Positions 6,001 to 56,689 of a stretch of 64,000 nt of DNA are shown in pieces; position 1 is the stretch's first letter, and every line of letters begins with the position of its first letter. The stretch lies in contig CM119373.1 of the NCBI GenBank assembly GCA_051294905.1, forward strand, positions 1 to 64,000, in the 5' to 3' direction. This DNA comes from Botryllus schlosseri. Lineage: Eukaryota. Both the position numbers and the translations under genes were made by a program. The notes beneath the pieces were generated by a model. It was given only the letters and a program-made list of their open reading frames with translations. It had not been told where the DNA came from and made no database searches.

Positions 6001-9000
6001 GTCTGTCCCTGTTGTAGGCCCTACACCAGACAACCACAGCGAAATTCGGGACCTCAAACAGTGTCACGGCCCCGTAGTTGTCGCGCAAAATTCAAAAAAT
6101 GGTCAAAAACCGTGTTTCGGCGGGTACTGCTCCGTCGATATCGCTCCCTGTCCGTGTCGGAGACCCGTAAAAGAGGTCTGTCCCTGTTGTAGGCCCTGCA
6201 CCAGACAACCACAGCGAAATTCGGGACCTCAAACAGTGTCACGGCCCCGTAATTGTCGGTCAAAATTCAAAAAATGGTCAAAAACCGTGTTTCGGCGGGT
6301 ACTGCTCCGTCGATATCGCTCCCTGTCCGTGTCGGAGACCCGTAAAAGAGGTCTGTCCCTGTTGTAGGCCCTGCACCAGACAACCACAGCGAAATTCGGG
6401 ACCTCAAACAGTGTCACGGCCCCGTAGTTGTCGCGCAAAATTCAAAAAATGGTCAAAAACCGTGTTTCGGCGGGTACTGCTCCGTCGATATCGCTCCCTG
6501 TCCGTGTCGGAGACCCGTAAAAGAGGTCTGTCCCTGTTGTAGGCCCTGCACCAGACAACCACAGCGAAATTCGGGACCTCAAACAGTGTCACGGCCCCGT
6601 AATTGTCGGTCAAAATTCAAAAAATGGTCAAAAACCGTGTTTCGGCGGGTACTGCTCCGTCGATATCGCTCCCTGTCCGTGTCGGAGACCCGTAAAAGAG
6701 GTCTGTCCCTGTTGTAGGCCCTGCACCAGACAACCACAGCGAAATTCGGGACCTCAAACAGTGTCACGGCCACGTAGTTGTCGCGCAAAATTCAAAAAAT
6801 GGTCAAAAAACCGTGTTTCGGCGGGTACTGCTCCGTCGATATCGCTCCCTGTCCGTGTCGGAGACCCGTAAAAGAGTTCTGTCCCTGTCGTAGGCCCTGC
6901 ACCAGACAACCACAGCGAAATTCGGGACCTCAAACAGTGTCACGGCCCCGTAGTTGTCGCGCAAAATTCAAAAAATGGTCAAAAACCGTGTTTCGGCGGG
7001 TACTGCTCCGTCGATATCGCTCCCTGTCCGTGTCGGAGACCCGTAAAAGAGGTCTGTCCCTGTTGTAGGCCCTGCACCAGACAACCACAGCGAAATTCAG
7101 GACCTCAAACAGTGTCACGGCCCCGTAGTTGTCGCGCAAAATTCATAAAATGGTCAAAAACCGTGTTTCGGCGGGTACTGCTCCGTCGATATCGCTCCCT
7201 GTCCGTGTCGGAGACCCGTAAAAGAGGTCTGTCCCTGTTGTAGGCCCTGCACCAGACAACCACAGCGAAATTCGGGACCTCAAACAGTGTCACGGCCCCG
7301 TAATTGTCGGTCAAAATTCAAAAAATGGTCAAAAACCGTGTTTCGGCGGGTACTGCTCCGTCGATATCGCTCCCTGTCCGTGTCGGAGACCCGTAAAAGA
7401 GGTCTGTCCCTGTTGTAGGCCCTGCACCAGACAACCACAGCGAAATTCGGGACCTCAAACAGTGTCACGGCCCCGTAATTGTCGGTCAAAATTCAAAAAA
7501 TGGTCAAAAACCGTGTTTCGGCGGGTACTGCTATGTCGATATTGCTCCCTGTCCGTGTCGGAGACCCGTAAAAGAGGTCTGTCCCTGTTGTAGGCCCTGC
7601 ACCAGACAACCACAGCGAAATTCAGGACCTCAAACAGTGTCACGGCCCCGTAGTTGTCGCGCAAAATTCAAAAAATGGTCAAAAACCGTGTTTCGGCGGG
7701 TACTGCTCCGTCGATATCGCTCCCTGTCCGTGTCGGAGACCCGTAAAAGAGGTCTGTCCCTGTTGTAGGCCCTGCACCAGACAACCACAGCGAAATTCGG
7801 GACCTCAAACAGTGTCACGGCCCCGTAGTTGTCGCGCAAAATTCAAAAAATGGTCAAAAACCGTGTTTCGGCGGGTACTGCTCCGTCGATATCGCTCCCT
7901 GTCCGTGTCGGAGACCCGTAAAAGAGGTCTGTCCCTGTTGTAGGCCCTGCACCAGACAACCACAGCGAAATTCGGGACCTCAAACAGTGTCACGGCCCCG
8001 TAATTGTCGGTCAAAATTCAAAAAATGGTCAAAAACCGTGTTTCGGCGGGTACTGCTCCGTCGATATCGCTCCCTGTCCGTGTCGGAGACCCGTAAAAGA
8101 GGTCTGTCCCTGTTGTAGGCCCTGCACCAGACAACCACAGCGAAATTCGGGACCTCAAACAGTGTCACGGCCCCGTAGTTGTCGCGCAAAATTCAAAAAA
8201 TGGTCAAAAACCGTGTTTCGGCGGGTACTGCTCCGTCGATATCGCTCCCTGTCCGTGTCGGAGACCCGTAAAAGAGGTCTGTCCCTGTTGTAGGCCCTGC
8301 ACCAGACAACCACAGCGAAATTCGGGACCTCAAACAGTGTCACGGCCCCGTAGTTGTCGCGCAAAATTCAAAAAATGGTCAAAAACCGTGTTTCGGCGGG
8401 TACTGCTCCGTCGATATCGCTCCCTGTCCGTGTCGGAGACCCGTAAAAGTGGTCTGTCCCTGTTGTAGGCCCTGCACCAGACAACCACAGCGAAATTCGG
8501 GACCTCAAACAGTGTCACGCCCCGTAGTTGTCGCGCAAAATTCAAAAAATGGTCAAAAACCGTGTTTCGGCGGGTACTGCTCCGTCGATATCGCTCCCTG
8601 TCCGTGTCGGAGACCCGTAAAAGAGGTCTGTCCCTGTTGTAGGCCCTGCACCAGACAACCACAGCGAAATTCGGGACCTCAAACAGTGTCACGGCCCCGT
8701 AATTGTCGGTCAAAATTCAAAAAATGGTCAAAAACCGTGTTTCGGCGGGTACTGCTCCGTCGATATCGCTCCCTGTCCGTGTCGGAGACCCGTAAAAGAG
8801 GTCTGTCCCTGTTGTAGGCCCTGCACCAGACAACCACAGCGAAATTCGGGACCTCAAACAGTGTCACGGCCCCGTAGTTGTCGCGCAAAATTCAAAAAAT
8901 GGTCAAAAACCGTGTTTCGGCGGGTACTGCTCCGTCGATATCGCTCCCTGTCCGTGTCGGAGACCCGTAAAAGAGGTCTGTCCCTGTTGTAGGCCCTGCA

Positions 9001-12000
9001 CCAGACAACCACAGCGAAATTCGGGACCTCAAACAGTGTCACGGCCCCGTAATTGTCGGTCAAAATTCAAAAAATGGTCAAAAACCGTGTTTCGGCGGGT
9101 ACTGCTCCGTCGATATCGCTCCCTGTCCGTGTCGGAGACCCGTAAAAGAGGTCTGTCCCTGTTGTAGGCCCTGCACCAGACAACCACAGCGAAATTCGGG
9201 ACCTCAAACAGTGTCACGGCCACGTAGTTGTCGCGCAAAATTCAAAAAATGGTCAAAAACCGTGTTTCGGCGGGTACTGCTCCGTCGATATCGCTCCCTG
9301 TCCGTGTCGGAGACCCGTAAAAGAGTTCTGTCCCTGTCGTAGGCCCTGCACCAGACAACCACAGCGAAATTCGGGACCTCAAACAGTGTCACGGCCCCGT
9401 AGTTGTCGCGCAAAATTCAAAAAATGGTCAAAAACCGTGTTTCGGCGGGTACTGCTCCGTCGATATCGCTCCCTGTCCGTGTCGGAGACCCGTAAAAGAG
9501 GTCTGTCCCTGTTGTAGGCCCTGCACCAGACAACCACAGCGAAATTCAGGACCTCAAACAGTGTCACGGCCCCGTAGTTGTCGCGCAAAATTCATAAAAT
9601 GGTCAAAAACCGTGTTTCGGCGGGTACTGCTCCGTCGATATCGCTCCCTGTCCGTGTCGGAGACCCGTAAAAGAGGTCTGTCCCTGTTGTAGGCCCTGCA
9701 CCAGACAACCACAGCGAAATTCGGGACCTCAAACAGTGTCACGGCCCCGTAATTGTCGGTCAAAATTCAAAAAATGGTCAAAAACCGTGTTTCGGCGGGT
9801 ACTGCTCCGTCGATATCGCTCCCTGTCCGTGTCGGAGACCCGTAAAAGAGGTCTGTCCCTGTTGTAGGCCCTGCACCAGACAACCACAGCGAAATTCGGG
9901 ACCTCAAACAGTGTCACGGCCCCGTAATTGTCGGTCAAAATTCAAAAAATGGTCAAAAACCGTGTTTCGGCGGGTACTGCTATGTCGATATTGCTCCCTG
10001 TCCGTGTCGGAGACCCGTAAAAGAGGTCTGTCCCTGTTGTAGGCCCTGCACCAGACAACCACAGCGAAATTCAGGACCTCAAACAGTGTCACGGCCCCGT
10101 AGTTGTCGCGCAAAATTCAAAAAATGGTCAAAAACCGTGTTTCGGCGGGTACTGCTCCGTCGATATCGCTCCCTGTCCGTGTCGGAGACCCGTAAAAGAG
10201 GTCTGTCCCTGTTGTAGGCCCTGCACCAGACAACCACAGCGAAATTCGGGACCTCAAACAGTGTCACGGCCCCGTAGTTGTCGCGCAAAATTCAAAAAAT
10301 GGTCAAAAACCGTGTTTCGGCGGGTACTGCTCCGTCGATATCGCTCCCTGTCCGTGTCGGAGACCCGTAAAAGAGGTCTGTCCCTGTTGTAGGCCCTGCA
10401 CCAGACAACCACAGCGAAATTCGGGACCTCAAACAGTGTCACGGCCCCGTAGTTGTCGCGCAAAATTCAAAAAATGGTCAAAAACCGTGTTTCGGCGGGT
10501 ACTGCTCCGTCGATATCGCTCCCTGTCCGTGTCGGAGACCCGTAAAAGAGGTCTGTCCCTGTTGTAGGCCCTGCACCAGACAACCACAGCGAAATTCGGG
10601 ACCTCAAACAGTGTCACGGCCCCGTAATTGTCGCGCAAAATTCAAAAAATGGTCAAAAACCGTGTTTCGGCGGGTACTGCTCCGTCGATATCGCTCCCTG
10701 TCCGTGTCGGAGACCCGTAAAAGAGGTCTGTCCCTGTTGTAGGCCCTGCACCAGACAACCACAGCGAAATTCGGGACCTCAAACAGTGTCACGGCCACGT
10801 AGTTGTCGCGCAAAATTCAAAAAATGGTCAAAAACCGTGTTTCGGCGGGTACTGCTCCGTCGATATCGCTCCCTGTCCGTGTCGGAGACCCGTAAAAGAG
10901 TTCTGTCCCTGTCGTAGGCCCTGCACCAGACAACCACAGCGAAATTCGGGACCTCAAACAGTGTCACGGCCCCGTAGTTGTCGCGCAAAATTCAAAAAAT
11001 GGTCAAAAACCGTGTTTCGGCGGGTACTGCTCCGTCGATATCGCTCCCTGTCCGTGTCGGAGACCCGTAAAAGAGGTCTGTCCCTGTTGTAGGCCCTGCA
11101 CCAGACAACCACAGCGAAATTCAGGACCTCAAACAGTGTCACGGCCCCGTAGTTGTCGCGCAAAATTCAAAAAATGGTCAAAAACCGTGTTTCGGCGGGT
11201 ACTGCTCCGTCGATATCGCTCCCTGTCCGTGTCGGAGACCCGTAAAAGAGGTCTGTCCCTGTTGTAGGCCCTGCACCAGACAACCACAGCGAAATTCGGG
11301 ACCTCAAACAGTGTCACGGCCCCGTAATTGTCGGTCAAAATTCAAAAAATGGTCAAAAACCGTGTTTCGGCGGGTACTGCTCCGTCGATATCGCTCCCTG
11401 TCCGTGTCGGAGACCCGTAAAAGAGGTCTGTCCCTGTTGTAGGCCCTGCACCAGACAACCACAGCGAAATTCGGGACCTCAAACAGTGTCACGGCCCCGT
11501 AATTGTCGGTCAAAATTCAAAAAATGGTCAAAAACCGTGTTTCGGCGGGTACTGCTATGTCGATATTGCTCCCTGTCCGTGTCGGAGACCCGTAAAAGAG
11601 GTCTGTCCCTGTTGTAGGCCCTGCACCAGACAACCACAGCGAAATTCAGGACCTCAAACAGTGTCACGGCCCCGTAGTTGTCGCGCAAAATTCAAAAAAT
11701 GGTCAAAAACCGTGTTTCGGCGGGTACTGCTCCGTCGATATCGCTCCCTGTCCGTGTCGGAGACCCGTAAAAGAGGTCTGTCCCTGTTGTAGGCCCTGCA
11801 CCAGACAACCACAGCGAAATTCGGGACCTCAAACAGTGTCACGGCCCCGTAGTTGTCGCGCAAAATTCAAAAAATGGTCAAAAACCGTGTTTCGGCGGGT
11901 ACTGCTCCGTCGATATCGCTCCCTGTCCGTGTCGGAGACCCGTAAAAGAGGTCTGTCCCTGTTGTAGGCCCTGCACCAGACAACCACAGCGAAATTCGGG

Positions 12001-14346
12001 ACCTCAAACAGTGTCACGGCCCCGTAGTTGTCGCGCAAAATTCAAAAAATGGTCAAAAACCGTGTTTCGGCGGGTACTGCTCCGTCGATATCGCTCCCTG
12101 TCCGTGTCGGAGACCCGTAAAAGAGGTCTGTCCCTGTTGTAGGCCCTGCACCAGACAACCACAGCGAAATTCGGGACCTCAAACAGTGTCACGGCCCCGT
12201 AATTGTCGCGCAAAATTCAAAAAATGGTCAAAAACCGTGTTTCGGCGGGTACTGCTCCGTCGATATCGCTCCCTGTCCGTGTCGGAGACCCGTAAAAGAG
12301 GTCTGTCCCTGTTGTAGGCCCTGCACCAGACAACCACAGCGAAATTCGGGACCTCAAACAGTGTCACGGCCCCGTAATTGTCGGTCAAAATTCAAAAAAT
12401 GGTCAAAAACCGTGTTTCGGCGGGTACTGCTCCGTCGATATCGCTCCCTGTATGTGTCGGAGACCCGTAAAAGAGGTCTGTCCCTGTTGTAGGCCCTGCA
12501 CCAGACAACCACAGCGAAATTCGGGACCTCAAACAGTGTCACGGCCCCGTAGTTGTCGCGCAAAATTCAAAAAATGGTCAAAAACCGTGTTTCGGCGGGT
12601 ACTGCTCCGTCGATATCGCTCCCTGTCCGTGTCGGAGACCCGTAAAAGAGGTCTGTCCCTGTTGTAGGCCCTGCACCAGACAACCACAGCGAAATTCGGG
12701 ACCTCAAACAGTGTCACGGCCCCGTAGTTGTCGCGCAAAATTCAAAAAATGGTCAAAAACCGTGTTTCGGCGGGTACTGCTCCGTCGATATCGCTCCCTG
12801 TCCGTGTCGGAGACCCGTAAAAGAGGTCTGTCCCTGTTGTAGGCCCTGCACCAGACAACCACAGCGAAATTCGGGACCTCAAACAGTGTCACGGCCCCGT
12901 AATTGTCGGTCAAAATTCAAAAAATGGTCAAAAACCGTGTTTCGGCGGGTACTGCTCCGTCGATATCGCTCCCTGTCCGTGTCGGAGACCCGTAAAAGAG
13001 GTCTGTCCCTGTTGTAGGCCCTGCACCAGACAACCACAGCGAAATTCAGGACCTCAAACAGTGTCACGGCCCCGTAGTTGTCGCGCAAAATTCAAAAAAT
13101 GGTCAAAAACCGTGTTTCGGCGGGTACTGCTCCGTCGATATCGCTCCCTGTCCGTGTCGGAGACCCGTAAAAGAGGTCTGTCCCTGTTGTAGGCCCTGCA
13201 CCAGACAACCACAGCGAAATTCGGGACCTCAAACAGTGTCACGGCCCCGTAGTTGTCGCGCAAAATTCAAAAAATGGTCAAAAACCGTGTTTCGGCGGGT
13301 ACTGCTCCGTCGATATCGCTCCCTGTCCGTGTCGGAGACCCGTAAAAGAGGTCTGTCCCTGTTGTAGGCCCTGCACCAGACAACCACAGCGAAATTCGGG
13401 ACCTCAAACAGTGTCACGGCCCCGTAATTGTCGGTCAAAATTCAAAAAATGGTCAAAAACCGTGTTTCGGCGGGTACTGCTCCGTCGATATCGCTCCCTG
13501 TCCGTGTCGGAGACCCGTAAAAGAGGTCTGTCCCTGTTGTAGGCCCTGCACCAGACAACCACAGCGAAATTCGGGACCTCAAACAGTGTCACGGCCCCGT
13601 AGTTGTCGCGCAAAATTCAAAAAATGGTCAAAAACCGTGTTTCGGCGGGTACTGCTCCGTCGATATCGCTCCCTGTCCGTGTCGGAGACCCGTAAAAGAG
13701 GTCTGTCCCTGTTGTAGGCCCTGCACCAGACAACCACAGCGAAATTCGGGACCTCAAACAGTGTCACGGCCCCGTAGTTGTCGCGCAAAATTCAAAAAAT
13801 GGTCAAAAACCGTGTTTCGGCGGGTACTGCTCCGTCGATATCGCTCCCTGTCCGTGTCGGAGACCCGTAAAAGAGGTCTGTCCCTGTTGTAGGCCCTGCA
13901 CCAGACAACCACAGCGAAATTCGGGACCTCAAACAGTGTCACGGCCCCGTAATTGTCGGTCAAAATTCAAAAAATGGTCAAAAACCGTGTTTCGGCGGGT
14001 ACTGCTCCGTCGATATCGCTCCCTGTCCGTGTCGGAGACCCGTAAAAGAGGTCTGTCCCTGTTGTAGGCCCTGCACCAGACAACCACAGCGAAATTCGGG
14101 ACCTCAAACAGTGTCACGGCCCCGTAGTTGTCGCGCAAAATTCAAAAAATGGTCAAAAACCGTGTTTCGGCGGGTACTGCTCCGTCGATATCGCTCCCTG
14201 TCCGTGTCGGAGACCCGTAAAAGAGGTCTGTCCCTGTTGTAGGCCCTGCACCAGACAACCACAGCGAAATTCGGGACCTCAAACAGTGTCACGGCCCCGT
14301 AATTGTCGGTCAAAATTCAAAAAATGGTCAAAAACCGTGTTTCGGC
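1..14346. repeat. 175-bp tandem satellite array, about 82 near-identical units, continuing off the left edge
   Basis: Unit (..gtttcggcgggtactgctccgtcgatatcgctccctgtccgtgtcggagacccgtaaaagagg..) recurs every 175 bp, with occasional 174/176-bp steps from 1-bp indels. Two main variants: gtagttgtcgcgc and gtaattgtcggtc. The last unit switches to the diverged variant at ~14347. Confidence 0.99.
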
Positions 14347-14513
14347 GCGTACTGCTCCGTCGATATAGCAAGTAGTACGTGTACGAGACCCGTAAAAGAG
14401 GTTTGCGCGTCTTGTAGGCCTAGCACACGACAACTGCAGCGAGATTTAGGACCTTAAACAGTGTCAACAACCGCCCAAAATGAATAAAAATCGTCAAAAA
14501 ACGTGTTTCGGCG

Positions 14514-14800
14514 GGCCCCAGACCGATTTTCGAGAAAAAAAATTTCGGGCATTCTATGACGTAATAATGACCCGGGAATCTCTTTTTTCAGAAAATTCTC
14601 GCCGCGCGCTCATATGCTATTGAACTGTCGCGTTAGAAGGACGTTTGGAGTGGATTACCGTGCATCAAGAACATTTATTGGAATCTCAAGTCACCGGGTG
14701 AGTGAAAATTTCTTCTAGTTGTGAAATCCACATACTTTAGCGTGGCGCGATTAGGCAAAATAGCTTTTCCCGAGTCCAAAATCGTTGGATTTTGGGCCAT
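14514..14800 (+). repeat. ~280-bp internal block of the element; other copies at ~15823-16110, 20535-20795, 21865-22125, 22864-23150 and 24173-24460
   Basis: Shared sequence cagaccgattttcg..atgacgt(a/g)ataatgacccg..ctcgccgcgcgctcatatgct..ggaatctcaagtc..gggtgagtgaaaat..ccgagtccaaaa. Confidence 0.9.
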
Positions 14801-14859
14801 AACTAGTCCCCGTAACTCGTCTCTATCTCAGCGCCTGTAACTTCGATTTGGTCAATTTC

Positions 14860-15700
14860 TTTTTTATTGCATTCGTCTCTCGGCGCCAATTCGATCGCGG
14901 GGTCGTTTTTTCGTCTGCTGCATACACGAGCCCAGATATTGGACGAAACGTCCCGAAAAAAATCCCTATACTTAACACGGCGCGATTTTGCGGAAGTCCA
15001 ACTTCCCATAAGAATGTATGGACCGGTTTTCGTGCCGTATCTACTCTCTGGGACGGCCCAGAATGACGAACGACGCACCGACGTGTTGGTATTCGCGCCC
15101 CGGTCACATCGGTGTGCGGCTCGACGATGTCCGACCTGAGGGAGGACCGCTATCGGCCTCTAAAGTAGCCTTTGATCAGCCGTGACGTCACAGTCGGCGG
15201 AAATCCCATAAGGAATGCCTGGTACGGTTTTCGGCCATTATCTCCTCTCTGGTACGGCCCAGAATGACGAACGACACATCTCTGTGTTCCTAAGCGGGCG
15301 CTGGTCACGTCGATGTGCGGCTCGATGGGTGTGGGTCACGTGTGGCGGCGCTAGAGAGTCGCGAATATCGGATTTCTGAGGGGGTTACAGGCCCGTAGCG
15401 TTCCTCCCCGAGCACTGACATGCACGAACGACCCATCGTTGCGTTCTGCTCCTCGAGGCGGTCATTCGAACACCAAATTCGACATCGTGGGCTCTCGTGG
15501 GGGGTCGCCAGAGCCCCCCCCCATTTTACTTCAACCGGGAATATGTCAGCTCCGGTACATCCGATTCTGGAAATTTCTTTTTCCGCGCATTCTTCTCTTG
15601 GCGCCAATTCGATCGCGGGGTCGTTTGTGTGTCTGCTACATACACGAGCCAAGCTTTTAGACGAAACGTCCCGAAAAAATCCCTATACTTTAACATGGGG
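14860..15700 (+). repeat. CpG-rich, internally duplicated region upstream of the recombinase gene
   Basis: ggcgccaattcgatcgcggggtcg..gacgaaacgtcccgaaaaaatccctatact occurs at ~14880-14972 and ~15600-15690. cccataag..ggcccagaatgacgaacgac occurs at ~15005-15075 and ~15205-15275. Same layout in copy 2 at +8350. Confidence 0.8.
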
Positions 15701-15988
15701 CCGGAGGTCGAAAAAAGTTGAAGTCTTTGACCAATTTATTTTCGTTCTAAACCGCCTACGCGTGTTCCTAAGACTCTCTAGAGACGCGTGGTGAAGAAAA
15801 TATCACGATCCCTCAACTTTTCCGGGCCCCAGACCGATTTTCGGGAAAAAAAATTTCGGGCCCTCTATGACGTAATAATGACCCGAGAATATCTTTTTCC
15901 AGATAATTCTCGCCGCGCGCTCATATGCTAGTGAACTGTCGCGTTAGGAGGACGTTTGGAGAGTATTACCGTGCATCAAGAACATATA

Positions 15989-18597
15989 ATGGAATCTCAA
16001 GTCGTCGGGTGAGTGAAAATGTCTTCTAATTTCGAAATCCCTATGCTTTAGCGTGGCGCGATTCGGCGAAATAGCTTTTACCGAGTCCAAAATCGCTGGT
16101 TTTCGGTCGATAACTCTCTCTGCTCCGGTAACTTCAACATGGCGCGATTTTTAATATTTCTATTGTAGCGATCCCGTTGCAATTCGACCCACGAAAAGAA
16201 TCAGACTCGACAGGTGTCAAGTTTGCCATATACAAACCAAAGGTCATAGAACGAGGCATCTTCGTAACGTTCATAAGTGGTCCGTGGACAGAATTAAAGA
16301 GTAAGATCGCCGTTGGCTTATTTATAACAAGCAGAAGCAAATAAATATTACGTGTCGCAGGTCTGCTCGCTACTTGCGCGAGCCCAGGCAAGACATAAAG
16401 CGATGTCGTCCACGGTCTTGGTGTGGTCTCTGCTCTAGATCAGTAGCCACGGCATATATAGCAACCCACTGGAGGATTATTCATTCCGATAAAATACGCG
16501 ACGGCTTCGGGATAGGTTGCGAGACCTACCAGGAAAACTTTAAAAAGTTGACCTTCGAGTCCGACTTTTCAAGCGTGAGTAACTCTGATGGTAATGTGTC
16601 ACTTTTTTACCGAAATAATGCAAATCCGTTTATTACAGCTACTCTCCCTGTACGAAAGGCATCGTCAAGTGCAAGCGCTCGACGAAGCCAACACCAAAAT
16701 GGTCGTCAGCAAACTGAAATCAGTTTTCAAGAAGTTTGTGGTTGACGAGCCGGAGCAATTAGTCACGTACATTTGTAACGCCGACGGGAAACTGTCCGCG
16801 AGCACTATTTTCAACACCCTGACGTCGCTAAAGGGATTTCTTGAATTTGCGCGCATGCAGCATCCGGCATTGTTGGAAAAAGTGGTTTCACCGGACAACC
16901 AACTGAGAGCCCTACAAATCATCGCGACGTACTCTAGAGCGACCAATAAAAGAAGAAAGCGGCAGCACGAGAAACGTTTGTCTGTCGACATGGACATCAT
17001 CAATAAAAATTGGCCGAATATCAAAAGGTTCGTGCTAAGATTAAAATATCGCCCAGTTTCAAGTTTATTATGCGTGTTTTTTTAGAATGATCAAAAGCGA
17101 AACGTTTAAAAGAGACCTCCATCAACCGTTAACAGACGAAAACGTCCGGGATTGTTTGGCGGCGACAATAATTCAAGTTGGTCTCTCGAGCGGCACGAGA
17201 TTATCATATTTCCGTAGAGTGACCGGATACGAGCTTAGCCACGCCGTCCGTTCCGTGAACGATCCCGAAATGTTAGTCATACAGGTGAACCACAACAAGT
17301 GCCTGTCGAGTCAGGGTTTGTTGGTTATGACGCAAAAAGACTATGACCGATTCAAACACGTAGGTGTTACGAAGATATGAACGTGTAATGGAGCGGTCTA
17401 AAACCTCTTTTCGATTTCAGATTTGCAAGCAAACCAATCCAGACTTGGATTTGTCACGGGAAGAAGTCGCGTTGCGAAACTCGAACGGCAAGCCGTTCCA
17501 AAATTTATCGGTTTGTGTCGTGGAATACCTCAGTACCCACGAAGTCAGCCTGACGTACCAGCACCTCCGTAAAATAGTCGCCACGATGGCGAGTTCGCTA
17601 GACGACATTGGACGATATCATGTTGCGATGTCATCGTCGCACAGCACGGAGGTCGCGAGTCGACACTATGACGGGATAGGCAGGACCAAGAGGGCGGCTG
17701 CCGGGGCGATTCTATGCAGAGAAATGCTCCGCAAAGCCGTGAACAGTACACACGATGACTTATATGCGGAGTTGGCCGCGTCAAAAGCTCCCCCAAATGA
17801 AGGTATGTAAAGCCCTATAAAATTATAACGTCATATATCTGACCGCAACTGTTTATTAAGGATCATTTGAATCACCGAACCCAACCCCGACCACAGTTCA
17901 ACCTGAGCTGCCAACAAAGGACGATATCACTAATGATACGCAATCAAACGGAGCTAATTCGGAAACTCTATTCGCTACGGACCGGGACACACGGATCGTC
18001 AGACCGACCCCAACCCCGACCACAGTTCAACCAGAGCTGCAAACAGAGGACGATAGCACTTTTCACTCCGAAAATGATACCCAATCAAACGGAGCTAATT
18101 CGGAAACTCTATTCGCTACGGACCGGGACACACGGATCGTCAGACCGACCCCAACCCCGAACACAGTTCAACCAGAGCTGCAAACAGAGGACGATAGCAC
18201 TTTTCACTCCGAAAATGATACCCAATCAAACGGAGCTAATTCGGAAACTCTATTCGCTACGGACCGGGACACACGGATCGTCACAAATGATGGTAATCTA
18301 TTTGCTATTACCGTCCAAATTCCATTTCTAATCATATTCAAACCCGCAGATATTGACGTCGAGGAAATAGCGAACACGATATGCAACCGTCAGAGAGGGA
18401 CCAAGACCACGTTGACGAACGAGCTAGTGGAGAAATTGATCAAAGACTCTCGATTGCATGCGTTTCATCACGATCGTGGACCTCTACTGAGCAGGATAGT
18501 TCACGAATATAAATCCGAATGCTATTTAACCTTTCAGCAAATGCGTTCAAAAATGAGATTGATCAAGTCGGTTTTAAAGACAAATAAACCTGGATGA
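15989..18597 (+). CDS. Spliced tyrosine recombinase (phage-integrase fold, Crypton-like) with two N-terminal C2H2-like zinc fingers; ~696 aa, reading frame intact
   Basis: Hand-built exons: 15989-16008, 16169-16300, 16361-16574, 16639-17027, 17086-17359, 17421-17802, 17861-18292, 18350-18597 (2091 nt, all GT-AG, phases compatible, no internal stop). Motifs: CQVC..HLRNVH and CGLC..HWRIIH fingers; LSASTIFNTLTSLKGFLEF core-binding helix; SSGTR (Arg 17198); VNHNK (Lys 17297); YQHLRK (Arg 17568); VAMSSSHSTEVASRHY (His 17640, Tyr 17667). Exon 1 is the least certain. Confidence 0.85.
17877..18282 (+). repeat. 141-bp coding minisatellite (~3 units) giving a 47-aa Pro/Thr/acidic repeat in exon 7
   Basis: agaccgaccccaacc recurs at 18001 and 18142. 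Translates as RPTPTPTTVQPELQTEDDSTFHSENDTQSNGANSETLFATDRDTRIV. Confidence 0.95.
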
Positions 18598-18796
18598 ACG
18601 GAGTTTTGTTCTTTGACTCTTGATTTTGATCCCCAAAATCGTGAGAACGAACGTGGCGCCTACCATGATACGCCTAAGCCCCTTTCACAATGTCGAGAAC
18701 GCGACGGACGTAAACTCAATACGAAATTTATGTCCGGCTCCACAACCTCACGATGACGGGCATGGATGATGAGATCCCGGACACGTTTTAACGCAA

Positions 18797-18814
18797 AATA
18801 AAGGCGCCAATAAA
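18797..18814 (+). promoter_or_regulatory. Paired AATAAA polyadenylation signals at the extreme right end of the element (also present in copy 2)
   Basis: AATAAA at 18797-18802 and 18809-18814, about 200 nt after the stop codon and 2 nt before the telomeric tract. Confidence 0.55.
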
Positions 18815-18816
18815 GT

Positions 18817-18879
18817 CCCTAACCCTAACCCTAACCCTAACCCTAACCCTAACCCTAACCCTAACCCTAACCCTAACCC
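18817..18879 (+). repeat. Perfect telomeric tract (CCCTAA)10 CCC between the two element copies
   Basis: Read directly: ccctaa x10 at 18817-18876, then ccc. Confidence 0.98.
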
Positions 18880-19131
18880 CACGAGTCCGTCGGTGTGCGG
18901 GAAATCGAAATCGGAGAAAAAAAATTTTCGACCTAGTCGGATTTTTTCATAAGTTTGAAATCCCCATACTTTAACACGGGGCCGAGATCGTAAAAAAGTT
19001 GAAGTCCGAAAAAAATTTTTTTCACCTAAAAACCACACGGGCGCGTTCCCCGCACTGTTTGAAGACGCCCCGCAAAGGAATTATCCCGATCCGACAAACG
19101 GATCGGCCTCCAGAGCCGGTCAAAGTTCCGA

Positions 19132-21814
19132 TTTCGGCGGGTACTGCTCCGTCGATATCGCTCCCTGTCCGTGTCGGAGACCCGTAAAAGAGGTCTGTCC
19201 CTGTTGTAGGCCCTGCACCAGACAACCACAGCGAAATTCAGGACCTCAAACAGTGTCACGGCCCCGTAATTGTCGGTCAAAATTCAAAAAATGGTCAAAA
19301 ACCGTGTTTCGGCGGGTACTGCTCCGTCGATATCGCTCCCTGTCCGTGTCGGAGACCCGTAAAAGAGGTCTGTCCCTGTTGTAGGCCCTGCACCAGACAA
19401 CCACAGCGAAATTCAGGACCTCAAACAGTGTCACGGCCCCGTAATTGTCGGTCAAAATTCAAAAAATGGTCAAAAACCGTGTTTCGGCGGGTACTGCTCC
19501 GTCGATATCGCTCCCTGTCCGTTTCGGAGACCCGTAAAAGAGGTCTGTCCCTGTTGTAGGCCCTGCACCAGACAACCACAGCGAAATTCAGGACCTCAAA
19601 CAGTGTCACGGCCCCGTAATTGTCGGTCAAAATTCAAAAAATGGTCAAAAACCGTGTTTCGGCGGGTACTGCTCCGTCGATATCGCTCCCTGTCCGTGTC
19701 GGAGACCCGTAAAAGAGGTCTGTCCCTGTTGTAGGCCCTGCACCAGACAACCACAGCGAAATTCAGGACCTCAAACAGTGTCACGGCCCCGTAATTGTCG
19801 GTCAAAATTCAAAAAATGGTCAAAAACCGTGTTTCGGCGGGTACTGCTCCGTCGATATCGCTCCCTGTCCGTGTCGGAGACCCGTAAAAGAGGTCTGTCC
19901 CTGTTGTAGGCCCTGCACCAGACAACCACAGCGAAATTCAGGACCTCAAACAGTGTCACGGCCCCGTAATTGTCGGTCAAAATTCAAAAAATGGTCAAAA
20001 ACGGTGTTTCGGCGGGTACTGCTCCGTCGATATCGCTCTCTGTCCGTGTCGGAGACCCGTAAAAGAGGTCTGTACCTGTTGTAGGCCCTGCACCAGACAA
20101 CCACAGCGAAATTCAGGACCTCAAACAGTGTCACGGCCCCGTAATTGTCGGTCAAAATTCAAAAAATGGTCAAAAACCGTGTTTCGGCGGGTACTGCTCC
20201 GTCGATATCGCTCCCTGTCCGTGTCGGAGACCCGTAAAAGAGGTCTGTCCCTGTTGTAGGCCCTGCACCAGACAACCACAGCGAAATTCAGGACCTCAAA
20301 CAGTGTCACGGCCCCGTAATTGTCGGTCAAAATTCAAAAAATGGTCAAAAACCGTGTTTCGGCGGGTACTGCTCCGTCGATATCGCTCCCTGTCCGTGTC
20401 GGAGACCCGTAAAAGAGGTCTGTCTCTGTTGTAGGCCCTGCACCAGACAACCACAGCGAGATTTAGGACCTTAAACAGTGTCACGGCTCCGCAATGTCGG
20501 TCAAAAACCCAAAAAAATTCAAAAAAATCGGCACAGACCGATTTTCGAGAAAAAAATTTTCGGGCCCTCTATGACGTGATAATGACCCGGGAATATCTTT
20601 TTTCAGAAAATTCTCGCCGCGCGCTCATATGCTATTGAACTGTCGCGTTGGGAGGACGTTGTGAGAGGATTACCGTGCATCAGGAACATTTATTGGAATC
20701 TCAAGTCACCGGGTGAGTGAAAATTTCTTCTAGTTGTGAAATCCACATACTTTAGCGTGGCGCGATTAGGCGAAATAGCTTTTACCGAGTCCAAAACCGT
20801 GTTTCGGCGCGTACTGCTCCGTCGATATAGCAAGTAGTACGTGTCCGAGACCCGTAAAAGAGGTTTGCGCGTCTTGTAGGCCTAGCACACGACATCCACA
20901 GCGAGATTCAGACCTTAAACAATGTCACGGCTCCGCAATAATCGGTCAAAAACCGCCCAAAATGCAAAAAAATCGTCCAAAACCGTGTTTCGGCGCGTAC
21001 TGCTCCGTCGATATAGCAAGTAGTACGTGTCCGAGACCCGTAAAAGAGGTTTGCGCGTCTTGTACGCCTAGCACACGACATCCACAGCGAGATTCAGACC
21101 TTAAACAGTGTCACGGCCCCGTAATTGTCGGTCAAAATTCAAAAAATGGTCAAAAACCGTGTTTCGGCGGGTACTGCTCCGTCGATATCGCTCCCTGTCC
21201 GTGTCGGAGACCCGTAAAAGAGGTCTGTACCTGTTGTAGGCCCTGCACCAGACAACCACAGCGAAATTAAGGACCTCAAACAGTGTCACGGCCCCGTAAT
21301 TGTCGGTCAAAATTCAAAAAATGGTCAAAAACCGTGTTTCGGCGGGTACTGCTCCGTCGATATCGCTCCCTGTCCGTGTCGGAGACCCGTAAAAGAGGTC
21401 TGTCCCTGTTGTAGGCCCTGCACCAGACAACCACAGCGAAATTCAGGACCTCAAACAGTGTCACGGCCCCGTAATTGTCGGTCAAAATTCAAAAAATGGT
21501 CAAAAACCGTGTTTCGGCGGGTACTGCTCCGTCGATATCGCTCCCTGTCCGTGTCGGAGACCCGTAAAAGAGGTCTGTCCCTGTTGTAGGCCCTGCACCA
21601 GACAACCACAGCGAAATTCAGGACCTCAAATAGTGTCACGGCCCCGTAATTGTCGGTCAAAATTCAAAAAATGGTCAAAAACCGTGTTTCGGCGGGTACT
21701 GCTCCGTCGATATCGCTCCCTGTCCGTGTCGGAGACCCGTAAAAGAGGTCTGTCTCTGTTGTAGGCCCTGCACCAGACAACCACAGCGAGATTTAGGACC
21801 TTAAACAGTGTCAC
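19132..21814. repeat. Short 175-bp satellite arrays inside copy 2 (~19132-20484 and ~21103-21814), interrupted by the 280-bp block and 186-bp variant units
   Basis: Same monomer as 1-14346, nearly all of the aattcagg + gtaattgtcggtc type. Confidence 0.95.
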
Positions 21815-22121
21815 GGCTCCGCAATGTCGGTCAAAAACCCAAAAAAATTCAAAAAAATCGGCACAGACCGATTTTCGAGAAAAATATTTTCGGGCCCTCT
21901 ATGACGTGATAATGACCCGGGAATATCTTTTTTCAGAAAATTCTCGCCGCGCGCTCATATGCTATTGAACTGTCGCGTTGGGAGGACGTTGTGAGAGGAT
22001 TACCGTGCATCAGGAACATTTATTGGAATCTCAAGTCACCGGGTGAGTGAAAATTTCTTCTAGTTGTGAAATGCACATACTTTAGCGTGGCGCGATTAGG
22101 CGAAATAGCTTTTACCGAGTC

Positions 22122-22864
22122 CAAAACCGTGTTTCGGCGCGTACTGCTCCGTCGATATAGGAAGTAGTACGTGTCCGAGACCCGTAAAAGAGGTTTGCGC
22201 GTCTTGTAGGCCTAGCACACGACATCCACAGCGAGATTCAGACCTTAAACAGTGTCACGGCTCCGCAATAATCGGTCAAAAACCGCCCAAAATGCAAAAA
22301 AATCGTCCAAAACCGTGTTTCGGCGCGTACTGCTCCGTCGATATAGCAAGTAGTACGTGTCCGAGACCCGTAAAAGAGGTTTGCGCGTCTTGTAGGCCTA
22401 GCACACGACATCCGCAGCGAGATTCAGACCTTAAACAGTGTCACGGCTCCGCAATAATCGGTCAAAAACCGCCCAAAATGCAAAAAAATCGTCCAAAACC
22501 GTGTTTCGGCGCGTACTGCTCCGTCGATATAGCAAGTAGTACGTGTCCGAGACCCGTAAAAGAGGTTTGCGCGACTTGTAGGCCTAGCACACGACATCCA
22601 CAGCGAGATTCAGACCTTAAACAGTGTCACGGCTCCGCAATAATCGGTCAAAAACCACCAAAAATGCAAAAAAATCGTCAAAAACCGTGTTTCGGCGCGT
22701 ACTGCTCCGTCGATATAGCAAGTAGTACGTGTACGAGACCCGTAAAAGAGGTTTGCGCGTCTTGTAGGCCTAGCACACGACAACTGCAGCGAGATTTAGG
22801 ACCTTAAACAGTGTCAACAACCGCCCAAAATGAATAAAAATCGTCAAAAAACGTGTTTCGGCGG
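22122..22864. repeat. Diverged 186-bp satellite variant, ~4 units (also ~20792-21102 and ~14347-14513)
   Basis: gtttcggcgcgtactgctccgtcgatatag(c/g)aagtagtacg recurs at 22131, 22317 and 22503. The ORF track shows the matching 62-aa period. Confidence 0.92.
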
Positions 22865-24338
22865 GCCCCAGACCGATTTTCGAGAAAAAAAATTTCGGGC
22901 ATTCTATGACGTAATAATGACCCGGGAATCTCTTTTTTCAGAAAATTCTCGCCGCGCGCTCATATGCTATTGAACTGTCGCGTTAGAAGGACGTTTGGAG
23001 TGGATTACCGTGCATCAAGAACATTTATTGGAATCTCAAGTCACCGGGTGAGTGAAAATTTCTTCTAGTTGTGAAATCCACATACTTTAGCGTGGCGCGA
23101 TTAGGCAAAATAGCTTTTCCCGAGTCCAAAATCGTTGGATTTTGGGCCATAACTAGTCCCCGTAACTCGTCTCTATCTCAGCGCCTGTAACTTCGATTTG
23201 GTCAATTTCTTTTTTATTGCATTCATCTCTCGGCGCCAATTCGATCGCGGGGTCGTTTGTTCGTCTGCTGCATACACGAGCCCAGATATTGGACGAAACG
23301 TCCCGAAAAAAATCCCTATACTTAACACGGCGCGATTTTGCGGAAGTCCAACTTCCCAGAAGAATGCATGGACCGGTTTTCGTGCCGTATCTACTCTCTG
23401 GGACGGCCCAGAATGACGAACGACGCACCGACGTGTTGGTATTCGCGCCCCGGTCACATCGGTGTGCGGCTCGACGATGTCCGACCTGAGGGAGGACCGC
23501 TATCGGCCTCTAAAGTAGCCTTTGATCAGCCGTGACGTCACAGTCGGCGGAAATCCCATAAGGAATGCCTGGTACGGTTTTCGGCCATTATCTCCTCTCT
23601 GGTACGGCCCAGAATGACGAACGACACATCTCTGTGTTCCTAAGCGGGCGCTGGTCACGTCGATGTGCGGCTCGATGGGTGTGGGTCACGTGTGGCGGCG
23701 CTAGAGAGTCGCGAATATCGGATTTCTGAGGGGGTTACAGGCCCGTAGCGTTCCTCCCCGAGCACTGACATGCACGAACGACCCATCGTTGCGTTCTGCT
23801 CCTCGAGGCGGTCATTCGAACACCAAATTCGACATCGTGGACCCTCGTGGGGGGTCGCCAAAGCCCCCCCCCATTTTACTTCAACCGGAGATATCTCAGC
23901 TCCGGTACATCCGATTCTGGAAATTTCTTTTTCCGCGCATTCTTCTCTTGGCGCCAATTCGATCGCGGGGTCGTTTGTGTGTCTGCTACATACACGAGCC
24001 AAGCTTTTAGACGAAACGTCCCGAAAAAATCCCTATACTTCAACATGGGGCCGGAGGTCGGAAAAAGTTGAAGTCTTTGACCAATTTATTTTCGTTCTAA
24101 ACCGCCTAGGCGTGTTCCTAGGACTCTCTAGAGACGCGTGGTGAAGAAAATATCACGATCCCTCAACTTTTCCGGGCCCCAGACCGATTTTCGGGGAAAA
24201 AAATTTCGGGCCCTCTATGACGTAATAATGACCCGAGAATATCTTTTTCCAGATAATTCTCGCCGCGCGCTCATATGCTAGTGAACTGTCGCGTTAGGAG
24301 GACGTTTGGAGAGTATTACCGTGCATCAAGAACATATA

Positions 24339-27240
24339 ATGGAATCTCAAGTCGTCGGGTGAGTGAAAATTTCTTCTAATTTCGAAATCCCTATGCTTTA
24401 GCGTGGCGCGATTCGGCGAAATAGCTTTTACCGAGTCCAAAATCGTTGGTTTTCGGTCCATAACTCTCTCTGCTCCGGTAACTTCAACATGGCGCGATTT
24501 TTAATATTTCTATTGCAGCGATCCCGTTGCAATTCGACCCACGAAAAGAATCAGACTCGACAGGTGTCAAGTTTGCCATATACAAACCAAAGGTCATAGA
24601 ACGAGGCATATTCGTAACGTTCATAAGTGGTCCGTGGACAGAATTAAAGAGTAAGATCGTTGTTGGCTTATTTATAACAACCAGAAGCAAATAAATATTA
24701 CGTGTCGCAGGTCTGCTCGCTACTTGCGCGAGCCCAGGCAAGACATAAAGCGAGGTCGTCCACGGTCTTGGTGTGGTCTCTGCTCCAGATCAGTAGCCAC
24801 GGCATACATAGCAAACCACTGAAGGATTATTCATTCCGATAAAATACGCGACGGCTTCGGGATAGGTTGCGAGACCTACCAGGAAAACTTTAAAAAGTTG
24901 ACCTTCGAGTCCGACTTTTCAAGCGTGAGTAACTCTGATGGTAATGTGTCATTTTTTTACCGAAATAATGTAGATCCGTTTATTACAGCTACTCTCCCTG
25001 TACGAAAGGCATCGCCAAGTGCAAGCGCTCGACGAAGCCAACACCAAAATGGTCGTCAGCAAACTAAAATCAGTTTTCAAGCAGTATGTGGTTGACGAGC
25101 CGGAACAATTAGTCACGTACATTTCTAACGCCGACGGGACACTGTCTGCGAGCACTATTTTCAACACCCTGACGTCGCTAAAGGGATTTCTTGAATTTGC
25201 GCGTATGCACCATCCGGCATTGTTGGAAAAAGTGGTTTCACCGGTCAAACAACTGAGAGCCATACAAATCATCGCGACGTACTCTAGAGCGACCAATAAA
25301 AGAAGAAAGCCGCAGCACGAGAAACGTTTATCTCTCGACATGGACGTCATCAATAAAAATTGGCCGAATATCAAAAGGTTCGTGCTAAGACTAAAATATC
25401 GCCCAGTTTCAAGTTTAATATGCGTGTTTTTTTAGAATGATCAAAAGCGAAACGTTTAAAAGAGACCTCCATCAACCGTTAACAGACGAAAACGTCCGGG
25501 ATTGTTTGGCGTTGACAATAATTCAAGTTGGTCTCTCGAGCGGCACGAGATTATCATATTTCCGTAGAGTGACCGGATACGAGCTTAGCCACGCCGTCCG
25601 TTCCGTGAACGATCCCGAAATGTTAGTCATACAGGTGAACCACAACAAGTGCCTGTCGAGTCAGGGTTTATTGGTTATGACTCAAAAAGACTATGACCGA
25701 TTCAAACAGGTAGGTGTTACGAAGATATGAACGTGTAATGGAGCGGTCTAGAACCTCTTTTCGATTTCAGATTTGCAAGCAAACCAATCCGGACTTGGAT
25801 TTGTCACGGGAAGAAGTCGCGTTGCGAAACTCGAACGGCAAGCCGTTCCAAAATTTATCGGTTTGTGTCGTGGAATACCTCAGTACCCACGAAGTCAGCC
25901 TAACGTACCAGCACCTCCGTAAAATAGTCGCCACGATGGCGAGTTCGCTAGACGACATTGGACGATATCATGTTGCGATGTCATCGTCGCACAGCACGGA
26001 GGTCGCCAGTCGACACTATGACGGGATAGGCAGGACCAAGAGGGCGGCTGCCGGGGCGATTCTATGCAGAGAAATGCTCCGCAAAGCCGCGAACAGTACA
26101 CACGATAACTTATATGCGGAGTTGGCCGCGTCAAAAGCTCCCCCAAATGAAGGTATGTAAAGCCCTATAAAATTATAACGTCATATATCTGACCGGAACT
26201 GTTTATTAAGGATCATTTGAATCGCCGAACCCAACCCCGACCACAGTTCAACCAGAGCTGCCAACAAAGGACGATATCACTTTACGCACCGAAAATGATA
26301 CGCAATCAAACGGAGCTAATTCGGAAACTCTATTCGCTACGGACCGGGACACACGGATCGTCAGACCGACCCCAGCCCCGACCACAGTTCAACCAGAGCT
26401 GCAAACAGAGGACGATAGCCCTTTTCACACCGAAAATGATACGCAATCAAACGGAGATAATTTGGAAACTCTATTCGCTACGGACCGGGACACACGGATC
26501 GTCAGACCGACCCCAACCCCGACCACAGTTCAACCAGAGCTGCAAACAGAGGACGATAGCACTTTTCACACCGAAAATGATACGCAATCAAACGGAGATA
26601 ATTCGGAAACTCTATTCGCTACGGACCGGGACACACGGATCGTCAGACCGACCCCAACCCCGACCACAGTTCAACCAGAGCTGCAAACAGAGGTCGATAG
26701 CCCTTTTCACACCGAAAATGATACGCAATCAAACGGAGATAATTCGGAAACTCTATTCGCTACGGACCGGGACACACGGATCGTCAGACCGACCCCAACC
26801 CCGACCACAGTTCAACCAGAGCTGCAAACAGAGGACGATAGCACTTTTCACACCGAAAATGATACGCAATCAAACGGAGATAATTCGGAAACTCTATTCG
26901 CTACGGACCGGGACACACGGATCGTCACAAATGAGGGTAATCTATTTGCTATTACCGTCCAAATTCAATTCTAATCATATTCAAACCCGCAGATATTGAC
27001 GTCGAGGAAATAGCGAATACGATATGCAACCGTCAGAGAGGGACCAAGACCACGTTGACAAACGAGCTAGTGGAGAAATTGATCAAAGACTCTCGATTGC
27101 ATGCGTTTTATCACGATCGTGGACCTCTACTGAGCAGGATAGTTCACGAATATAAATCCGAATGCTATTTAACCTTTCAGCAAATGCGTTCAAAAATGAG
27201 ATTGATCAAGTCGTTTTTAAAGACAAATAAACGTGGATGA
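24339..27240 (+). pseudogene. Second copy of the zinc-finger tyrosine recombinase gene with a premature stop in exon 3
   Basis: Same exon structure and splice sites as copy 1. TGG(Trp)>TGA at 24820-24822 in the second zinc finger (cac tga agg vs cac tgg agg). Catalytic R/K/R/H/Y residues unchanged. Confidence 0.8.
26227..26926 (+). repeat. 141-bp coding minisatellite, ~5 units in copy 2
   Basis: Same unit as 17877-18282. The exon stays in frame (26211-26936, 726 nt). Confidence 0.95.
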
Positions 27241-28590
27241 ACGGAGTTTTGTTCTTTGACTCTTGATTTTGATCCCCAAAATCTTGAGAACGAGCGTGGC
27301 GCCTACCATGATACGCCTAAGCCCCTTTCACAATGTCGAGAACGCGACGCACGTAAACTCAATACGAAATTTATGTCCGGCTCCACAACCTCACGATGAC
27401 GGGCATGGATGATGAGATCCCGGACACGTTTTAACGCAAAATAAAGGCGCCAATAAAGTCCCTAACCTATAATTGTGCCAGTTCAAATGTCCGCTAGCTG
27501 CAAAACTATAACACGATAGTTTTACGATGTCCCGATCGACCCGATGCATTTGTACAGTCGCATGGTGACTACAACTAAATGTACAGCAACTATGCAAAGT
27601 GCGGCAACAATTGTGTTCGAATATTTTAAAATGTGATTTTTTTCGTGGCAGGCATGAATTCACAATAGTAAATCACATTTCCCAGATGTGTGTGGAATGT
27701 CAGTTTGCAAGGTCCCGTCAAATAAAGCCTACTCGGAAATACATTGAATTCCCCTATTATTGGTGCCTGCGGCCCGCGGCGCCATCAAAAAGTAGGAAAT
27801 TGGCCCGCTAGCATATTTGAGTTTGAGACCTCTGTTTTAGATATACATAAAAGTTCTATTAATAGAATCTTTCAATATGATCGAAATTCTTAGCCGTCCT
27901 AAAACGAAGGTATATTAGGCTATGCTAAACACTGCGCTCGACGTAATGGAGCTGCAGAATTTCGTACTAAGACCAACTGACGTGGTTGCGAGTCATCAAT
28001 TCTTAACCCTTTGCGAAAATATAGAAGTCACAATGAGTAAAGCGATGGTGAAGTTAACGCACCGTAAATTTCGCAATGGCTTAAGAAACGCGGAAGCTCG
28101 AGCGTAACGGATCTTATGCAAAATTCTTTCAATTTATATGTTTGTCATATTTTGGAATCGGGAGAGGATTTTCACACTAACAGTACTGGAGTTGCCAAAA
28201 AGGAAGACATTTAGGCGTCCTAGGACGACAATTTGAAAAACCTGAAAAAGGAGGACAAATCCGCCTAAAGCAGTTCGTATGTTAACCATAATTGAATTGC
28301 AGCACCATTACGGTGGCTTTCTGAAGACGATGTCTATGGCAAATTTTTTTTCAACCTGCGAGTTAATTTGGGACCTCATAATTTTTATAGCGCAGAGCCC
28401 CTTTAAGAATAAGCAGCTAACAAGTTATGATCGAACGAGGTCCGAGGTTCATTGGTACCCCTGAATATTCTGATGATGTAGAGAAATTTATGCATCTGAA
28501 CACAATTGGTGCATAAATTAATGCTTCAATTAATACTCGAATAATATAATAACTTATTATAAATTTGCCCTTTGGAGCTAAGCTTGTTAA

Positions 28591-29344
28591 CGGTGCACTG
28601 CACTCTAAAAACTATGTGGTCTCAAAGTGAAGGGCGAAACGAGATAATTTTTTAGGCCACAGCCATTTTCTTCAGAACGCCACCGTAATGGAGCTGCAAT
28701 TTATTGAATTTTTTACAGGGGAATCATGCTCCAGCAGTCACGCAGAAATCGAACTTCATATAGTTGTCTTCTGTAGTTGACTGAACGGTTGCCCGACATA
28801 TGAGCATGCGACACAATGAAAAACGACAGTTCAGCATGGAACACATCAGCATGCGTCACTTCAGCATGTGACTGGATAACCCAAAAACGTACCCTAACCC
28901 GAAACATAGCCTAACCTAACCTAACCTAGCCTAACCTAACCTAAACCCTAACCCTAACCCAACCATAAACCTATAACCTAACCTACCCCTAACCCGTAAT
29001 TTAACCCACATGCTCATGTGTCGCATGCCAAATTGTCGCATGCCGAAGTGTCGCATGCTGTAATGTCGCATGCTCATATGCCCACGGACCGACTGAACAT
29101 CTTCCGTTGCACGTGGTGTTTAAACGACCTTTGCTTGTATGACATATTTCCTTTATAACATCGGCTGACAACGATATAAAGTTCGATTTCTGTGTGACTG
29201 CTGGAGCATGATTCCCCTGTAAAAAATTCAATAAATTGCAGCTCCTTTACGGTGGCATTGTGAAGAATATGGCTGTGGCCTAAAACTTTTTCTCGTTTCG
29301 CCCTTCAATTTGAGACGACATCATTTTTAGAGAACAGTGCCCCT
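28591..29344. mobile_element. Non-autonomous DNA element with ~165-bp TIRs, Kolobok-like (TTAA flanks)
   Basis: ttaa|cggtgcactgcactctaaaa.. pairs with ..ttttagagaacagtgcccct|ttaa. Arms ~28591-28757 and ~29178-29344 are reverse complements. Confidence 0.7.
28786..29091. mobile_element. Nested MITE with CGG..CCG ends, 6-bp TSD and a degenerate cctaa/ccctaa core
   Basis: ACTGAA at 28780-28785 and 29092-29097. catatgagcatgcgaca pairs with tgtcgcatgctcatatg. 15-bp subterminal repeats. Confidence 0.75.
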
Positions 29345-29392
29345 TTAAACTATTCGCCGATTCAACTACATTTATATCTTTAGTATGAGAAG

Positions 29393-29892: not shown

Positions 29893-30019
29893 AGAAAGTC
29901 ATTACATTATGAGAAGTCTCAAATAAGCATTTCTAGCTGAAGTTGGTCATGTGCTCTGGATTCGCACATGAGCATTTAGCAATATCATTTAAAGCTAACA
30001 TATTGTTTTAATTCCAGGC

Positions 30020-30347
30020 ACATACAGTCGATTTAACGACTTCAAAGTTGACACCTCCACATCTTTTGATTGCACGTCATGAGAATGGAGATGAACAGTC
30101 GTGGATTGCGGCCAATGGCATCACCATCAAGCGCAGATCCGAAAACGAAAGAAGACCGTTTGAGATGATTATTGATCTCGTAGCATGCTATTACGCATGG
30201 GATCTTAGTTATCCCAAGGTCTTTCAAATATTGCCATTCATTCAACGTGTCGTTGTTGGTGATAAAAATTCAGGATTCCAGTCGAACAAGTTCGTCAATT
30301 TTTGGAAAAAATATCAGAATGCCCAGCAATCGATTGAAAAAATGTAG
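30020..30347 (+). pseudogene. Terminal-exon remnant of a transposon-associated ORF (CMC/EnSpm-type accessory, SAMD3-like C-terminus)
   Basis: IIDLVACYYAWDLSYPKVFQILPFIQ resembles the 'YYxFnLxYP..FIQ' motif I recall for this family, and is preceded by a ttccag acceptor. No search was run. Confidence 0.45.
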
Positions 30348-55868: not shown

Positions 55869-56689
55869 ATCAAAAAAGATATCATCTCGTATTTTCTCCG
55901 CAGTTGGTCGTTTTTCCGGATCACGCTCCAACATACGTTCAAGCAGATCTATAAGTTTGCTCCTCTTTGAAGGGTGATCGGGAAAAGTTGGGATCATAGA
56001 TAAATCCCGCCCCTTACTTTCCTTTATGTTTACAGCCCATCTGTCTCGGTCCGACCCGAATGGGTGATGTCCATGCGTAACGATGAAATAGGCAACGATT
56101 CCCATGGGATAGATGTCTGCTCGATATCCAAGCTCCTCTACATTTTGATATGTCTCTGGTGCCCTATATCCATTGGTCCCAGCATCTGCGTTTGTTACTG
56201 GAACCTTGGTTGCGTCGTCAGGGATTTCTTTGCTGATTCCAAAATCTGATACCCTGATGCTTCTATTATCTTTCGATATGAGGACATTGCTAGGCTTCAA
56301 ATCTCTATGCGCAACGCCGCGTTGATGCATATGTTCGATCGCCATCGCCAGTTGAAGGAAGAAAGTTACGGCCACCTGGAGGTCAGGCTGACTCTGTTTA
56401 ATATACTCATAAAGGTTTTGCGAACATAGCTCCATTGCCAAGTATATCTTAGGGATGGTTTCTTCTATGGTTCCTGAACAAAAAATTCCTATGATATATT
56501 GGTGCTTCTCCAGCTTTAATAGGAAATCAATCTCCTTATCGTGATCTTTTGTCTTCTTCACAAGTTTAATTGCGACATCCTGCTTATTTTTATTCGCATG
56601 TAGCTGATATCCCATGTAAACCTCTTTCCCTTCGCATATTGGGTTACGAGTGTCCATGTGTAAGTTGCTTCTGGGAATCTCTTTCCAAC
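55869..56689 (-). CDS. IRE1-like protein kinase domain on a single large exon (no KEN follows directly)
   Basis: ORF 55842-56657: VAIK, HRDLKPSNVL, SDFGISK, GTNGYRAPE, ADIYPMG..THGHHPFG, KRPT. tttcag acceptor at ~56690 and probable donor after FFDG. Small flanking exons at ~55739-55816, ~57697-57729 and ~57822-57927. Confidence 0.85.

Follow-up and report, generated by a model that had tools for sequence, protein, structure and literature searches.

The first 64,000 nucleotides of a Botryllus schlosseri contig (CM119373.1; this 64-kb stretch is hereafter called the window) raise the question of how a mobile element came to end in a single telomere-like repeat directly next to other DNA. The initial annotation took the letters at this junction for a minimal 8-bp crossover core. 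The junction is real, but the 8-bp core is an over-reading of it.

Tandem copies and their right ends

The element forms a tandem unit of about 8.6 kb with a tyrosine-recombinase-like gene. Copy 1 (1-18816, forward strand), whose left end lies outside the window, is followed on the same strand by an interstitial telomere tract (18817-18879) of 10.5 perfect CCCTAA repeats, i.e. 63 bp (10 x 6 + 3) with CCC at both start and finish, which agrees with the ten repeats originally described. The tract directly left of copy 2 is pure repeat, oriented as at a left chromosome end. Copy 2 (18880-27459, forward strand) comprises 8580 bp between telomere-matching letters and contains 175/186-bp and 141-bp tandem repeats and no terminal inverted repeat. 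Its right end reads AATAAAGT (27452-27459), followed by the telomere stub CCCTAACC (27460-27467, forward strand) and by TATAATTG (27468-27475), as had been reported. Two AATAAA hexamers on the forward strand (27440-27445 and 27452-27457) at the extreme end of the element are predicted from the letters as candidate poly(A) signals. The last 68 letters are identical in both copies (27400-27467 and 18757-18824), and the copies diverge right after them.

The 8-mer CCCTAACC has 16 matches in the window, ten of them in the inter-copy tract, one at the junction, four in a CCTAA-like array (28892-28994) and one at 60577. Since only 1.12 matches are expected by chance in 64 kb, its placement at the element end is not a chance one.

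A minimal core of 8 bp is nevertheless not supported by the junctions that could be compared, which within the window are the right ends of both copies and the left end of copy 2. Because the target is periodic, the stretch shared by the two right junctions caps the length of the crossover, so that eight letters are the maximum and not the minimum, and the stub represents the longest overlap possible rather than a defined core. The same 8-mer does precede the left end of copy 2 (18871-18878), but as one of ten overlapping matches in the tract it carries no information on the core. As the 63-bp tract starts and finishes in CCC, its phase implies that the element's two ends overlap in either 3 (CCC) or 9 (CCCTAACCC) telomere-matching letters, and any core length from 0 to 8 fits once the element ends are shifted, the overlap not being fixable in a periodic target.

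The two copies differ by 1.4-2.6% substitutions in four aligned segments. At the 14 listed sites the letter found in the public sequencing runs is carried by copy 1 at four and by copy 2 at ten, from which no order of insertion follows. The 175-bp satellite occupies positions 2-14466 of copy 1 with about 83 units, whereas the arrays of copy 2 hold about 8, 5 and 4. The 77 units that were cut out fall into only 18 distinct sequences, one of which recurs 30 times; so few distinct units in so large an array suggest that the satellite expanded recently.

The recombinase-like gene and comparable elements

The gene of copy 2 (24968-27240, forward strand; about 16618-18597 in copy 1) was modelled as a spliced gene of five exons with GT-AG introns of 56-61 bp. 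The spliced model of copy 1, which has four GT-AG introns of 57-61 bp, is open for 581 aa. The model of copy 2 has a stop at codon 2, and its open frame begins at the following Met, corresponding in position to the start of the relative P0003. Only two protein relatives were found, P0002 (78%) and P0003 (45%), both unnamed singletons. In exon 4 an in-frame coding repeat of 141 bp (47 aa, rich in Thr, Pro and Asp) is present in 2.5 units in copy 1 (17932-18283) and in five units in copy 2 (26225-26927).

Three exons separately gave leads to families of the tyrosine recombinase fold, none of them above the curated cut-off, and a Pfam SAM-like match (E=0.049) was likewise weaker than the cut-off. 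The neighbours in the language-model Atlas were PF00589, PF16684, PF13009 and PF16787 at 0.87-0.93. We take R175, K208, R278, H302 and Y311 of the spliced model to be the candidate catalytic residues, presuming the usual spacing of the motifs. In the last motifs of exon 3, R, H and Y are invariant in all four aligned sequences, and the His sits two, not three, residues before R278. A sequence search against the PDB returned nothing significant, and the predicted fold of one exon was of low confidence (pLDDT 45.6) and had no structural match. On the basis of the language-model neighbours and the motif positions the encoded protein is probably a tyrosine recombinase, though unproven as such. Both exons of the catalytic region (25419-26157) also list a protelomerase/telomere-resolvase cluster as an Atlas neighbour (0.90 with 109 shared features and 0.92 with 128), which we regard as leads only.

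Neither a reverse transcriptase nor an RNase H or gag-like frame was seen in copy 2, and the element has no Rfam match, hammerhead ribozyme included. No match between the two ends of copy 2 exceeds 11 letters, and terminal inverted or long direct repeats are lacking, which is a feature of the Crypton type. Scans of metagenome and prokaryote collections for other copies of the element ends gave no matches.

The Y' elements of yeast offer another parallel. The layout of the junction is already known from other telomere-dwelling elements, e.g. the fungal MoTeRs. According to the accessible text of PMC7367193, MoTeRs lie head to tail in TTAGGG telomeres with short tracts between the copies, and one inserted a single repeat away from the telomere junction. 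However, they are reverse-transcriptase elements, whereas the element described here has an intron-containing recombinase-like gene. The TATE elements of Leishmania braziliensis, as far as the available parts of PMC6681497 and PMC6390901 describe them, are tyrosine-recombinase elements in tandem clusters that use one hexamer register, GGG^TTA. The minus strand at our locus, reading GGG, element, GGG, TTA, is compatible with this register, but neither the gag-like and RT/RNase H frames of TATE nor its split direct repeats were found here. Membership among the TATE/DIRS recombinase retrotransposons was rejected as no such frame was seen in copy 2.

Cryptons carry one recombinase gene, lack terminal inverted repeats and have a short direct overlap at their ends, to judge from the accessible sections of PMC3212892. 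The element resembles them in lacking such repeats and probably in its gene content, may also share the short overlap, and may belong among them. CryptonV, compared by description only, targets microsatellites and thus shares a simple-repeat target (PMC8869645, in the portion available; it also appears as a table entry in the excerpt of PMC5753468). The element differs from the Cryptons in its target, which is the telomere repeat, in its large satellite cargo and in giving no match to the Pfam Crypton domain. Terminons, i.e. endonuclease-deficient Penelope-like elements, resemble the element in that C-rich telomere letters stand at the 3' end and that copies are arrayed head to tail with short tracts (PMC6431247, accessible text), but at the locus studied here neither a reverse transcriptase nor a hammerhead ribozyme was found. 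Membership in the Terminon/Athena group was rejected on these two grounds.

The flank right of the junction

The sequence beyond the stub had been described as ordinary host DNA, a description that proved inexact, and the case named there as refuting, in which it would belong to the element, does not apply, as the flank is not element sequence. It carries several repeats instead of single-copy DNA. Runs X6-X10, with small word shares, were left out of the contig comparison. In this comparison of contigs from four of the 15 listed public runs (X1, X5, X11 and X12) with positions 26930-28860, the summed contig depth in the bin 27450-27514 rose 2.5-, 24.5-, 4.5- and 14.9-fold over the last element bin, values that do not represent copy numbers. 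This rise in the junction bin indicates that the flank starts in a non-element repeat.

The flank begins with a left-truncated copy of an unnamed repeat (27465-27620, strand not assigned, right limit approximate). Beyond this copy, as far as 28860, lies a mosaic of short high-copy repeats. From 27465 onwards the flank is matched by 36 contigs of run X1, which share an AT-rich sequence leftwards of it that ends in TATTCT (agreement 0.74), compared with agreements of 0.36-0.49 in the five listed rows at 27834 and 28787, where the flanks look unrelated. Since this upstream sequence is shared by the X1 contigs, the copy of the repeat in the window is truncated here, and the repeat family has no more than ACC (27465-27467, forward strand) in common with the telomere phase. 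The row in question comes from one of the four runs and from 24 listed of 1385 loose-end rows, and is a consensus of contigs that are mostly paralogues. A 3-nt match in some telomere phase is expected by chance at 8.1% of host positions. With one gap, the X1 consensus shares CT as well and is readable as a degenerate telomere-like site.

Element contigs stop matching at 27453 (X11), 27462 (X5) and 27465 (X12), the X12 contig continuing with 64 non-fitting letters, to which end trimming may contribute. None of the 32 pieces listed of 19,943 bridges the junction. Over 530 letters the public runs deviate from copy 2 at about 18-20 positions, and judging from this divergence they probably stem from other individuals; their contigs inform on presence and not on absence. 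In X5, X11 and X12 the element end (26930-27465) is covered by one main contig at a depth similar to that of near-identical flank contigs, a weak hint of a low copy number.

Neither a second copy of the 27465-27620 repeat nor its upstream consensus occurs in the window, and the 1.4 kb of flank scanned contain no variant telomere repeat pair. Flank matches from the collection scans (3 + 1 + 3 loci) were rejected as chance, having no likeness beyond the search pattern. Further to the right, a nested inverted-repeat (MITE-like) structure (28584-29348) surrounds a mixed CCTAA/CCCTAA array (28877-28994) and has a very high contig depth over the compared part. An open frame of 111 codons (30012-30347, forward strand) resembles a last exon. 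Neither a homologue nor an exon upstream of it was found, and if its 5' exons are missing, this would support a terminal loss. A single frame of 284 codons on the reverse strand (55842-56696) encodes a protein kinase domain (Pfam Pkinase, E=2.3e-43).

Origin of the junction

We favour, with a probability of roughly 0.55, a break inside a repeat that was healed by a telomere on a 3-nt microhomology, the element now residing in the innermost telomere repeat. A chromosome break would have cut a copy of the repeat at ACC, which reads GGT on the G strand, after which telomere repeats would have been added in register on the ACC match, presumably by telomerase. The recombinase element, inserting between the CCC triplets of CCCTAA arrays, may have reached the innermost repeat either by direct insertion there or by later shrinkage of the inner tract. 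Of the two alternatives offered by the initial annotation, the data fit the second, in which a break was healed and elements and tracts were then added distally; copy 1 lies ten repeats further out than the end of copy 2.

At the junction a truncated sequence is joined to in-register repeats with a microhomology in the range of 0-4 nt that characterises healed telomeres, as seen in one run against a paralogue consensus and with a chance expectation of 8.1%. The locus before the event may have differed from this consensus. In the accessible part of a study of human healed ends, five of six sequenced ends had 1-3 bp of microhomology, and repeats contained several of the breakpoints (PMC4427916). 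Such neotelomeres, with telomere repeats directly on truncated DNA, correspond closely to the present junction, with the difference that only one repeat remains here and is capped by a mobile element.

The available text on Magnaporthe oryzae likewise describes a newly acquired MoTeR one TTAGGG from the telomere-rDNA junction and inner tracts that break when they hold at least three repeats and are stable with at most two (PMC7367193). A long tract inside the element would accordingly break and shed the element, while a one-repeat stub would be retained because short tracts are stable, as in the MoTeR case, so that positions such as this one may persist through survivor bias.

Capture of the broken end without telomerase is an unlikely explanation, although it would yield identical letters. 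The broken GGT-3' end would pair with CCCTAACC at the right end of an element, whether this element lies on another chromosome end, on a circle or in a transcript. Element and tract would be copied outwards by break-induced replication or by a Terminon-like RNA route; all letters of CCCTA would then derive from the donor, and recombinase action would be unnecessary at this site. The routes of MoTeR acquisition named in the accessible text include recombination and break-induced replication as well as transposition (PMC7367193), and Terminon 3' ends are described, in the part available, as carrying reverse-complement telomere repeats in head-to-tail arrays split by short tracts (PMC6431247). 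The sense strand of our element likewise ends in C-rich repeats. However, copy 2 has no reverse transcriptase frame and no ribozyme or other Rfam match, and landing in the first repeat of the donor tract requires luck or selection.

It seems improbable that the recombinase integrated the element conservatively, using an 8-bp crossover core at a lone CCCTAACC (or degenerate) site that already existed, and that the distal arm was then lost or the tract came from an element circle. The 8-mer flanks copy 2 at both ends, and its length lies within the typical recombinase spacer size of 6-8 bp, Cryptons having terminal direct repeats of 4-6 bp (PMC3212892, sections available). Such an integration predicts unique host DNA at the left, which is at odds with the pure 63-bp tract found there, and the paralogue consensus of the flank, which stands in for the empty site though not as an orthologous allele, lacks the 8-mer and shares only ACC with CCCTAACC. 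Lox-type sites consist of two inverted arms of 11-13 bp flanking a 6-8 bp spacer, whereas no inverted arms surround the candidate cores: the best of 360 placements matched at 7 of 13 positions, which was equalled or beaten in 1866 of 2000 random trials. Taking furthermore into account that the overlap is 3 or 9 according to the phase of the tract, that all cores from 0 to 8 fit and that the X12 element contig ceases to match at 27465, this first alternative of the initial annotation does not fit.

A later deletion, reaching from the first repeat on the element's right side into a subtelomeric repeat and removing the telomere base and subtelomere, or an assembly mis-join would also produce a 3-nt microhomology and a truncated repeat and would agree with the lack of a bridging contig among the listed pieces, but is very unlikely given that the join falls precisely in the telomere phase and that the runs, probably from other individuals, show presence and not absence.

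Highly doubtful as well, but of wider consequence, is the idea that the element's own recombinase joins the right end to broken or critically short chromosome ends via about 3 nt of telomere-like microhomology, an animal DNA transposon thereby capping breaks and seeding telomeres. The protelomerase-domain neighbours of two exons (0.90-0.92), being model-based leads only, leave room for an end-processing enzyme. If true, this would be a recombinase counterpart of end healing of the Drosophila or Terminon type.

In a search conducted mostly without subscription literature and Repbase Reports, the source of CryptonV, we came across no publication describing an element that carries only a recombinase and targets the TTAGGG telomeres of animals. 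The locus bears on the way in which a DNA element with only a recombinase lives in animal telomeres. With the proposed site length corrected, the healed-break reading suggests that the chromosome end at which the window appears to lie was formed by breakage and that copies of the element persist at the telomere base.
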